A DNA stretch of 64,000 nucleotides from Escherichia coli. Its GTDB lineage: Bacteria; Pseudomonadota; Gammaproteobacteria; Enterobacterales; Enterobacteriaceae. Under the pieces are notes generated by a model. That model worked only from the letters and a program-made list of their open reading frames with translations, was not told the DNA's origin and made no database searches. The stretch lies in assembly GCF_003334385.1 (NCBI RefSeq), contig NZ_QOWN01000021.1; one strand, given 5' to 3'. A program made the translations under genes and the position numbers. Positions 51,155 to 52,108 of the stretch are shown here, in pieces (the stretch's first letter is position 1; each line of letters starts with the position of its first letter).

Positions 51155-52108
51155 TCAAAATGCATTACGGATAACATCTATTACTCCGTGCAGGATGGGA
51201 TCACGCAGGCTGAATTTGTTGTAGTGGATAGAGAAATCTATTTGCTCCTCATTTAAGGACGGAAAAGGCAGTTTTTCCAGCGGCCAGCAGCGGCTAAACA
51301 GGTTATAAAAACGGCTGGGAATAATCGCTAACATGTCACTGTTGGCAACCAGTGCAGCGATTGTCAAAATGTTGTAGCTGGTGAAATTGATTTGCCGGTC
51401 CGGAAACATTTCTTGAACTCTCTGCCGCAGACCGCTGAAATTTTGCTCTTCCGGTAACAGAAGTACATGCGCAGCGTTGTCGATAGTCTCTCTGTCATCT
51501 TCTAAAGAGAGTAGTGGATTTCCCTCGCGGCAAATTAACACCATATTGTCGGTGAACAGAACATGATGTTGCACCGTACGATTGGTGCAAAACATGTTAT
51601 CGATGATGAGATCGGTTTGAAACTGACTGAGTTGGTTTTCCGCGTCGCTGATGGGCGGGTTGCGCAGTAAAAGCTGCGGATAGTGAGTTTTAATCGCCCG
51701 ATAGATGACAGGAAGGACCAGTGCTCCGACCGAGGGAGTGGTCGCAATAGTTATCGTTCGTTGCTTATCATAGCTTCCTTCGATATCCAGCGCGCCAAGA
51801 ATGGACTCAAGGCCCTGACTGATATACTCATGTAGATGCATCGCAAATGCGGTAGGAGTGACACCCTGGCCTTTGCGAATAAACAATGGGTCAGGGAATA
51901 TAACGCGCAGTTTCTGAATAGACTGACTGATTGCCGAGGGGGTCAGATTAAGCACTTTCGCTGCATTAACGATCCCTTTATGTACATATACAGCTTCAAA
52001 AATAGTCAGAAGGTTAAGATCAATATTTCGTAAGGTTGTAAATATTTGTGGTTTACCTTCTGACGACTTTCTGCTTAAACAGGGTTCAATTTGATTATTA
52101 CTATCCAC
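51155..52108 (-). CDS. ybeF: LysR-family transcriptional regulator YbeF
   Basis: 317-aa ORF MDSNNQIEPCLSRKSSEGKPQIFTTLRNIDLNLLTIFEAVYVHKGIVNAAKVLNLTPSAISQSIQKLR; AT-rich gene between lipA and lipB. Confidence 0.88.
   Translation of the reverse strand: MDSNNQIEPCLSRKSSEGKPQIFTTLRNIDLNLLTIFEAVYVHKGIVNAAKVLNLTPSAISQSIQKLRVIFPDPLFIRKGQGVTPTAFAMHLHEYISQGLESILGALDIEGSYDKQRTITIATTPSVGALVLPVIYRAIKTHYPQLLLRNPPISDAENQLSQFQTDLIIDNMFCTNRTVQHHVLFTDNMVLICREGNPLLSLEDDRETIDNAAHVLLLPEEQNFSGLRQRVQEMFPDRQINFTSYNILTIAALVANSDMLAIIPSRFYNLFSRCWPLEKLPFPSLNEEQIDFSIHYNKFSLRDPILHGVIDVIRNAF

Follow-up and report, generated by a model that had tools for sequence, protein, structure and literature searches.

The genes lipB and lipA of Escherichia coli lie on one strand and are separated by a third gene, ybeF, which encodes a transcription regulator of the LysR type, and the locus raises the question of how a regulatory gene came to stand there and whether it acts on the lip genes beside it. 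The analysis covers a stretch of 64,000 nucleotides from E. coli (NCBI RefSeq assembly GCF_003334385.1, contig NZ_QOWN01000021.1), here called the window, which is 99.97% identical to positions 609272-673270 of E. coli K-12 MG1655 and differs from it by 18 substitutions and one 1-bp insertion. An original prediction, made from the letters of the window, had taken the arrangement for foreign regulatory DNA inserted in a housekeeping locus and had named the lip genes as candidate targets. The reading that we favour, with a probability of about 0.78, is that ybeF arrived in a single old insertion and has been inherited mostly vertically since then, that it is transcribed from a promoter of its own and acts on distant targets, the lip genes not being among them, and that its host can dispense with it.

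The insertion between lipB and lipA and its age

The ybeF coding sequence occupies positions 51155..52108 of the minus strand, encodes 317 amino acids and is identical or near-identical to the gene annotated as b0629 in MG1655. It is flanked on the same strand by lipA (49981..50946) across a spacer of 208 bp and by lipB (52367..53008) across a spacer of 258 bp, and the gene call, coordinates and common strand given in the original prediction are correct. The arrangement itself is already published and the feature is therefore a known one, ybeF having been reported between lipB and lipA in E. coli, Enterobacter, Klebsiella and Salmonella and not in Yersinia or Shewanella (Zhang et al. 2015, PMC4398509). 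A wider view comes from a scan for LipA with one genome per species, which gave 80 loci across the Gammaproteobacteria, with only one or two genomes per family, in which LipA, LipB, YbeD, DacA and YbeF were placed by tblastn. The order dacA-ybeD-lipB-lipA is conserved from the Halomonadaceae to Vibrio, Shewanella, the Pasteurellaceae and the Enterobacterales. In 69 of the loci lipB and lipA are adjacent across a gap of 13-348 bp without any YbeF match; the other 11 have a gap of 1406-1473 bp that contains a gene of the YbeF family. Ten of these belong to the Enterobacteriaceae (E. albertii, five Enterobacter-type genomes, Pseudocitrobacter, Superficieibacter, 'Enterobacter sp. Ag1' and Mangrovibacter) and one, Rahnella bruchi, to the Yersiniaceae, and the three divergent copies in the slot still exceed the YbeF model cut-off of 277 bits, with 484.5 bits in Ag1, 404.1 in Mangrovibacter and 301.1 in Rahnella. 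Universal presence across the Gammaproteobacteria would have spoken against an insertion, and the 80 loci do not show it. The adjacency of lipB and lipA in most of them thus supports ybeF as an insertion relative to the ancestral gene order, but it says nothing of the source.

The event is also old. The lipB-ybeF-lipA order is present in Klebsiella pneumoniae as well, and named YbeF orthologues occur in Salmonella, Citrobacter koseri, C. rodentium, C. amalonaticus, Kosakonia, Leclercia, Lelliottia, Kluyvera, Yokenella and Cedecea. When the YbeF proteins are placed in a neighbour-joining tree with the paralogue CitR as root, the result broadly matches the species tree, with Escherichia, Salmonella and Citrobacter grouped together, followed by the Enterobacter group, by Klebsiella on a long branch and then by Mangrovibacter. 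Since the same slot is occupied in Escherichia, Enterobacter, Klebsiella and Mangrovibacter and the tree follows that of the species, the insertion is not recent and goes back at least to the ancestor that the Enterobacteriaceae have in common. The Rahnella protein stands outside all the Enterobacteriaceae copies and is equidistant from them (36-42% identity); its gene lies at positions 4754-5692 of the R. bruchi locus, with 41% identity, and several Rahnella species carry a gene of the family, Yersinia being without ybeF. A search of 1.84 billion representative proteins returned about four full-length clusters at 50% identity that belong to the YbeF family, three of which are identified by their members as those of Klebsiella, Mangrovibacter and Rahnella. 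The next relatives outside these clusters are LysR proteins of Dryocola, Enterobacillus and metagenomes at 25-32% identity, and no donor lineage is visible in that collection.

Signs of mobility were likewise sought around the gene. No tRNA gene is present at 45000-58000 of the window and no integrase or transposase gene near ybeF. A 14-nt direct repeat (51008-51021 and 52199-52212) was considered as an insertion scar and rejected, as 13% of dinucleotide shuffles reach it and genera other than Escherichia do not conserve it. A resemblance of the two spacers in inverted orientation, reached by 1.6% of the shuffles, was likewise rejected as evidence of a footprint. A tblastn search of a plasmid collection gave high-identity matches only in E. 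coli records, most of them of chromosome size (up to 4.9 Mb); a Klebsiella match proved to be a 5.37-Mb chromosome labelled as a plasmid, and the remaining plasmid matches are generic LysR genes of less than 60% identity. No phage copy was found, the phage matches having at most 28% identity. Patchy presence among close relatives, by which an islet is recognised, is not seen either, the locus being present as gene or remnant in 5425 of 5426 complete E. coli genomes. What the original prediction described as foreign DNA inserted in a housekeeping locus is therefore an insertion indeed, and its foreign origin lacks both a donor and a mobility signature.

Spacers, promoters and the lipA leader

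The ybeF-lipA spacer (50947..51154, minus strand, 208 bp, 38.9% GC) contains the lipA promoter and a leader of about 100 nt, and E. coli and E. albertii share it at 99% identity. The extended -10 element of the promoter, TGATATACT (51039..51047, minus strand), lies 101 nt upstream of the lipA ATG and is unchanged in 11 of 12 Enterobacteriaceae-type loci, those without ybeF included, Mangrovibacter having TGTTATACT in its place. The sequence TGATATAAT is found at -106 to -109 from lipA in Yersinia, Dickeya and Rahnella, and TGnTATAAT-like sequences upstream of lipA in Photorhabdus and Providencia were seen by eye and went unscored by the scan. A separate lipA promoter in this spacer is also listed among constitutive promoters (Shimada et al. 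2014, PMC3946193, Table 1). The gap between lipB and lipA measures 13-90 bp in Vibrio, Shewanella and similar genera and at least 140 bp in every Enterobacterales locus. As the lipA promoter lies about 100-109 nt upstream of the gene in Enterobacterales with or without ybeF, the regulator gene appears to have entered behind the end of lipB and ahead of a lipA promoter that was already there, and, as judged from these alignments, its insertion split no operon.

Within the leader, the core TTCAAAAATAGTTGATAA (51009..51026, minus strand) lies inside an imperfect palindrome AATTCAA...TTGAATT and is identical in 11 of 12 aligned sequences, locus L017 differing at a few positions. Its 15-nt part AAAAATAGTTGATAA is exact in six Enterobacteriaceae loci and has two substitutions in locus L017. 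A permissive Rfam scan of 49500-53600 gave no match in either spacer, and its sole sub-threshold matches belong to the convergent tatE/lipA terminator at about 49920-50000. The conserved leader could represent a regulatory site that has not yet been described, or a structure in the RNA by which lipoyl synthase is controlled.

The lipB-ybeF spacer (52109..52366, minus strand, 258 bp, 35.3% GC) comprises a hairpin behind lipB, the ybeF promoter and a long and variable 5′ leader. The stem-loop (52330..52355, minus strand) lies 14 nt after the lipB stop codon, with a folding free energy of -12.1 kcal/mol and z = -3.5; a hairpin is predicted at the equal position in all nine genera compared, in differing sequence, and in seven of them its folding clearly surpasses that of shuffled controls. 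The ybeD-lipB transcript probably finishes with this hairpin, as its 3′ end or terminator. The E. coli hairpin has no U-run behind it, so that read-through into ybeF is possible, and a consensus scan for terminators found none in either spacer. The sigma-70 promoter of ybeF (52282..52308, minus strand; TTTACA-15-TATATT) was also recovered by a consensus scan, and nine of ten aligned sequences keep its CTTTACA...TATATTTTC, locus L014 alone departing from it; no match to the promoter was found in Rahnella, Mangrovibacter or Ag1. An identical constitutive sigma-70 promoter of ybeF is listed with an 'HNS' flag (Shimada et al. 2014, PMC3946193, Table 1). Together with the 5′ part of ybeF the spacer forms an AT-rich tract of about 530 bp (approximately 51839-52366, 34-38% GC), which may be bound by H-NS in a manner that keeps ybeF expression low, and the gene would then be expressed weakly from its own promoter within the tract.

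Just upstream of the Shine-Dalgarno sequence of ybeF, the Enterobacter-type genera have a dyad ATTCA-N5-TGAAT, of the T-N11-A type, which is degenerate in E. coli; it may serve for autoregulation or form a hairpin in the RNA. Counted with no more than one mismatch, the dyad occurs 11 times in the window against 2.6 occurrences expected, and the matches at 27391, 28382, 42853 and 42907 lie upstream of citR and ybdN and, in two cases, in the citC-dpiB spacer. The dyad may thus represent an operator common to regulators of the CitR and YbeF type, or else an effect of AT-rich intergenic DNA; as such DNA inflates the counts, the observation is treated as a lead only.

Constraint, decay and base composition of ybeF

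The gene ybeF is a real and known, if poorly characterised, gene for a LysR-type transcription factor of the LeuO/CitR-like branch. The equivalog model of the YbeF family of transcriptional regulators (NCBIfam NF008554) matches residues 1-317 with 609.8 bits, well beyond its cut-off. The protein has both domains of a LysR-type regulator of about 300 residues, an N-terminal winged helix-turn-helix (Pfam HTH_1, PF00126, residues 31-89, E = 2.5e-14) and a C-terminal substrate domain (LysR_substrate, PF03466, residues 116-316, E = 1.9e-16). The next-best NCBIfam models, those of CitR, BsrA and LeuO, each score under their own cut-offs; the CitR model (NF047710) reaches 182.6 bits against a cut-off of 400, which makes YbeF a paralogue and not a member of the CitR family, and the LeuO model (NF007063), fourth in rank, reaches 112.5 bits against 262. 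The closest solved structures by sequence are the LysR-type chains of Protein Data Bank (PDB) entries 1uth and 2uye, aligned over residues 24-284 with E of about 1e-18. The start codon is a GTG at 52108..52106, preceded by the Shine-Dalgarno sequence GGAG at 52119..52116, and both positions are kept across genera.

Constraint is distributed very unevenly along the gene. Between E. coli and Enterobacter cloacae the protein identity is 98% for LipA, 95% for DacA, 92% for YbeD, 85% for LipB and 64% for YbeF, which makes ybeF the fastest-evolving gene of the locus; its identity is 68% to Salmonella and 53% to Klebsiella. The N-terminal extension (residues 1-25; 52034..52108, minus strand) is poorly conserved and very AT-rich, with 0-44% identity to other genera, 52% to E. 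albertii and a ratio of non-synonymous to synonymous substitution rates (dN/dS) of 0.18-0.45. The winged-helix DNA-binding domain (residues 26-90), encoded together with the linker helix (residues 91-115) at 51764..52033 on the minus strand, is 91-95% identical in most Enterobacteriaceae genera and 78% identical in Mangrovibacter and Rahnella; the linker is 80-92% identical in most Enterobacteriaceae genera and lower in Mangrovibacter and Rahnella, which are not counted in that range. The effector-binding domain (residues 116-317; 51158..51763, minus strand) evolves fast, with identities of 39-57% in the other genera of the Enterobacteriaceae, of 80% in E. albertii and of 28% in Rahnella. With Mangrovibacter and Rahnella left aside, most genera of the family show 12-52% identity in the N-terminal extension and 43-57% in the effector domain. 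The dN/dS is 0.04-0.11 for the whole gene in three species pairs, about 0.02 for the DNA-binding domain and linker and about 0.10 for the effector domain. The near-frozen DNA-binding domain beside an effector domain that evolves about five times faster is a new observation, and the low ratios and uneven constraint show that the protein is real, that its DNA-binding surface is conserved and that its signal domain is loosely constrained or specific to the lineage.

Within E. coli the gene is nevertheless often broken. Among the 5426 complete genomes, 1053 (19.4%) lack window positions 51200-51580; the segment deleted in these alleles spans 51193..51589 of the minus strand (about 397 bp) and contains most of the effector domain. 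The pseudogene alleles also have a 1-bp deletion at 52002, a frameshift that scrambles the helix-turn-helix, and in CFT073 and strain B20123 about 200 bp more are deleted at approximately 51737-51940. RefSeq annotates such alleles as frameshifted, incomplete pseudogenes. The carriers that were sampled include EC958, JJ1886, SE15, several strains labelled O25b:H4-ST131 and CFT073, all of which belong to the extraintestinal-pathogenic phylogroup B2. Both C. werkmanii and Citrobacter sp. FP75 (positions 5788-6001) lack ybeF together with the spacer upstream of it, and about 38 bp lead from the lipB stop to DNA homologous to the E. coli ybeF-lipA spacer; the lipB-lipA gap is 212 bp and retains the promoter and leader of lipA, 89% identical to those of E. 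coli. This is a clean secondary deletion, which would have left the control of lipA intact. That about 19% of complete E. coli genomes carry a decayed ybeF and that at least two Citrobacter genomes have lost the gene is new here, the pseudogene being apparently undescribed in the papers mentioning ybeF within the literature searched. Several independent disabling lesions and the loss in Citrobacter show ybeF to be dispensable. Two single isolates deserve mention beside these alleles. In one swine E. coli isolate (NZ_CP041110.1) an IS1 transposase is inserted in the ybeF region, and in strain 52F4 (3845-4183) a deletion corresponding to window positions 50137-52184 runs from inside lipA through ybeF and truncates lipoyl synthase, which could be an assembly artefact or could mark a lipoate auxotroph.

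Base composition, from which the idea of a foreign gene had started, was compared among the 59 intact genes of the window. The GC content is 44.9% for ybeF, 53.4% for lipA, 47.7% for lipB, 46.2% for ybeD and 38.6% for citR (ybdO), with a gene mean of 52.3%. For ybeF this is z = -1.7, the third lowest of the 59, and at third codon positions (GC3) z = -1.3; its GC3 of 0.472 is above the 0.453 of lipB. The codon adaptation index is 0.248 (z = -0.8, sixth lowest), rare codons make up 7.9% (third highest), and about 10% of 954-bp windows equal ybeF in AT-richness. The gene thus stands at the AT-rich end of the normal range and does not differ clearly from two of its three neighbours. The claim that its GC content is clearly lower than that of its neighbours applies to lipA, and fails for lipB and ybeD, which exceed it by 1-3 points. 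The spacers, which had been described as long and AT-rich, are so in their own figures and yet both fall inside the range of the 31 intergenic regions of the window (mean 41.2% GC, standard deviation 8.2%, median length 180 bp). Moreover, the low GC content of ybeF is confined to its first 270 nt or so, the 5′ third: codons 1-25 have 34.7% GC and a GC3 of 24%, the DNA-binding domain has 42.6% GC, and the effector domain, with a GC3 of 53%, is near the window mean of 55.8%. Among orthologues GC3 tracks the host (0.664 against 0.688 for lipA in Enterobacter sp. BIGb0383), and total GC is 3-8 points below that of lipA in every species compared, which argues for an effect of protein composition and of the 5′ AT-rich tract and not for leftover foreign composition.

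The true compositional outlier of the window is the paralogue citR (27445..28347, minus strand), which scores 467.5 bits with the CitR model against the cut-off of 400 and 165 bits with the YbeF model. It has the lowest GC content of the 59 genes, with z of about -3, and its flanking spacers (27299-27444 and 28348-28555) have 32-34% GC. The original prediction was right to name ybdO as another LysR gene rich in AT, and citR would be the better candidate for an AT-rich foreign regulator. As a separate observation on the window, the 1-bp insertion relative to MG1655, at about 48959, leaves ybeM (48754-49548, deaminated glutathione amidase) intact with 264 amino acids; the MG1655 ybeM is a pseudogene, so that the window cannot be DNA of MG1655 proper.

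Origin, targets and relatives of YbeF

Published experiments on YbeF place its effects away from the lip locus. In glucose M9 medium, chromatin immunoprecipitation with exonuclease digestion (ChIP-exo) gave three sites, near moeB, yfiD and yihQ, and none at the lip locus (PMC8464067, supplement). In a ybeF knockout 67 genes were changed, with lrhA down 3.5-fold and the FlhDC regulon up and no binding detected at lrhA, and the supplementary text of that study does not mention lipA or lipB (PMC9068703). With the lipA promoter and leader unchanged in the Citrobacter genomes that lack ybeF, these results run counter to the suggestion that the lip genes are targets of YbeF, and lipA is likely to be independent of it.

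Of the possible histories of the gene, a recent foreign islet, brought into E. coli or its close relatives by horizontal transfer, is hardly credible. The distribution already contradicts it, with the same slot occupied in 5425 of the 5426 E. coli genomes and in at least eight other genera, and so do the broad agreement of the gene tree with the species tree and the tracking of host GC3 by the orthologues, whatever is made of a GC content of 44.9% against a mean of 52.3%, of the rank of the gene in rare codons and of its low codon adaptation index. The strong AT-richness of citR and the H-NS flag of the ybeF promoter might suggest such a history too; lipB and ybeD, however, are nearly as AT-rich as ybeF, and around the gene there is neither a tRNA nor a mobility gene, the repeats are at chance level and no genuine plasmid or phage copy exists. 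An older origin is a different matter, possible if on balance unlikely. The insertion would then predate the Enterobacteriaceae, having occurred in the common ancestor of that family and the Yersiniaceae, with frequent loss afterwards (in Yersinia, Erwinia, Dickeya, Photorhabdus and others), and Rahnella would be a vertical survivor. The R. bruchi gene, at 301 bits against the cut-off of 277, lies in the exact slot between native-looking flanks (LipA 89% and LipB 68%, as for Yersinia), the branching of Rahnella outside the Enterobacteriaceae copies and equidistant from them suits this course, as does the presence of the gene in several Rahnella species, and losses do occur, as Citrobacter and about a fifth of E. 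coli demonstrate. Such a history, however, requires the gene to have vanished completely on at least four or five independent occasions among the families sampled, in a sample of one or two genomes per family, and a single old transfer through the conserved lipB and lipA flanks explains the same data; moreover, no ybeF promoter motif common to Rahnella and the Enterobacteriaceae was found.

As for function, it is only slightly more credible than a recent arrival that ybeF is a functionless relic decaying everywhere, with the K-12 reading frame intact by chance. A relic would not be expected to have, in each of three independent species pairs, a dN/dS as low as 0.04-0.11 for the gene and 0.02 for the DNA-binding domain, nor a reading frame, start codon and Shine-Dalgarno sequence kept across genera whose synonymous divergence is saturated, nor a conserved promoter, and the published knockout alters 67 transcripts (PMC9068703); these weigh more than the pseudogene in about 19% of E. 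coli, the loss in some Citrobacter, the fast evolution of the gene within its locus and the fewness and weakness of the published ChIP-exo peaks. Doubtful, though with more in its favour, is a dedicated local regulator which would sense a metabolite, for example octanoyl or lipoyl status, and control lipA, perhaps also lipB, from the spacers. Most characterised LysR regulators act on neighbours, and wherever a genus has ybeF, the gene stands next to lipA; a peak of RcdA in ybeF upstream of lipA, found by genomic systematic evolution of ligands by exponential enrichment (SELEX), marks the region as regulatory, and the yfiD/grcA site of YbeF also concerns pyruvate metabolism. Against this, ybeF is divergently transcribed from no neighbour, the lipA promoter and leader are essentially the same in Citrobacter without ybeF and similar in locus L017, the promoter stands equally far from lipA in Yersinia, Dickeya and Photorhabdus, all without ybeF, and about 19% of E. 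coli genomes combine a dead ybeF with intact lipA and lipB, in addition to the absence of the lip locus from the published ChIP-exo peaks and of lipA and lipB from the supplementary text of the knockout study. A comparably improbable proposal is that ybeF was lost from about a fifth of complete E. coli genomes by adaptation and not neutrally and, more broadly, that YbeF is an anti-silencer similar to LeuO, whose DNA target is conserved and whose signal domain is specific to the lineage. Since K-12 with ybeF deleted has lower lrhA and a raised FlhDC regulon (PMC9068703), the control of motility and fimbriae could have been rewired by a natural null allele in the strains that carry it.

Under the favoured reading of an old insertion that was mostly inherited vertically, a single event would have put ybeF between the hairpin behind lipB and the existing lipA promoter. 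By analogy with the LysR family, a YbeF oligomer would bind interrupted T-N11-A dyads through its conserved N-terminal winged helix, with its activity modulated by the C-terminal domain, which is much less constrained and differs strongly from genus to genus, and the targets would lie elsewhere in the genome, as the effect on motility through lrhA and flhDC and the ChIP-exo sites at moeB, yfiD and yihQ suggest. Several points weigh against this reading. The Rahnella copy makes the timing ambiguous between an older origin with many losses and an old lateral transfer. Vertical descent at a uniform rate does not explain the divergence from E. albertii, where the synonymous divergence of ybeF is saturated (dS 2.65 against 0.05-0.83 in the neighbours) and the nucleotide identity is 66-82% against 82-100% for the neighbours (E. 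albertii locus 4839-5792); this island of divergence might reflect an allelic replacement or a locally raised mutation rate. LysR regulators usually control the adjacent gene, and the very long-kept adjacency of ybeF and lipA could hint at a local role invisible to ChIP-exo in glucose M9. The three ChIP-exo peaks are weak, with signal-to-noise ratios of 1.1-4.3, YbeF has no established DNA-binding motif, and the H-NS binding of the AT-rich tract goes back to one flag in one table (PMC3946193).

The use of the analysis is that it corrects a tempting story in which a foreign regulator was inserted to control the lip genes. The correction rests on the age of the insertion, on a composition signal that is weak and confined to the 5′ end, on a lipA promoter that was there before and on the lack of anything that ties YbeF to lipoate synthesis. 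The knockout and ChIP-exo experiments on ybeF are already published (PMC8464067, PMC9068703); to those who work on YbeF, the frozen DNA-binding domain, the E. coli pseudogene, which ST131 strains and CFT073 carry and which shows the gene to be dispensable in a major pathogenic lineage, and the extremely conserved lipA leader may be useful.

Set beside known systems, the gene is plainly the known YbeF (NF008554, PRK11482, b0629), being the same gene in the same lipB-ybeF-lipA slot with no difference in kind; the strain of the window departs from MG1655 only at other places, such as its intact ybeM. The two-domain layout is common to YbeF and to DntR and related solved regulators (PDB 1uth, 2uye and 5ae4); DntR is a sensor of aromatic compounds from Burkholderia, and its relation to YbeF is distant, so that it allows no inference about the ligand of YbeF.

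The setting of ybeF invites comparison with leuO, which lies between the leu and ilvIH operons in AT-rich DNA bound by H-NS, is nearly silent in laboratory culture and encodes a protein with no established small-molecule effector. YbeF is, however, not an orthologue of LeuO, which is conserved much more widely and strongly, and the antagonism of H-NS is a trait of the LysR-type LeuO that was never demonstrated for YbeF. A further comparison is with CitR (YbdO), whose DNA-binding domain is 55% identical to that of YbeF and has the same N-terminal motif 'DLNLL'; each protein is matched by the model of the other at 165-183 bits, and both genes are AT-rich. Their overall identity is, by contrast, only about 29%, and citR, with 38.6% GC, is by far the stronger compositional outlier. 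CitR also has a ChIP-exo peak upstream of its own gene and of the adjacent ybdNM, of which it is the proposed repressor (PMC9068703), whereas no such local target is known for YbeF. In the published RNA-seq the knockouts of citR and of ybeF each lower lrhA (PMC9068703).

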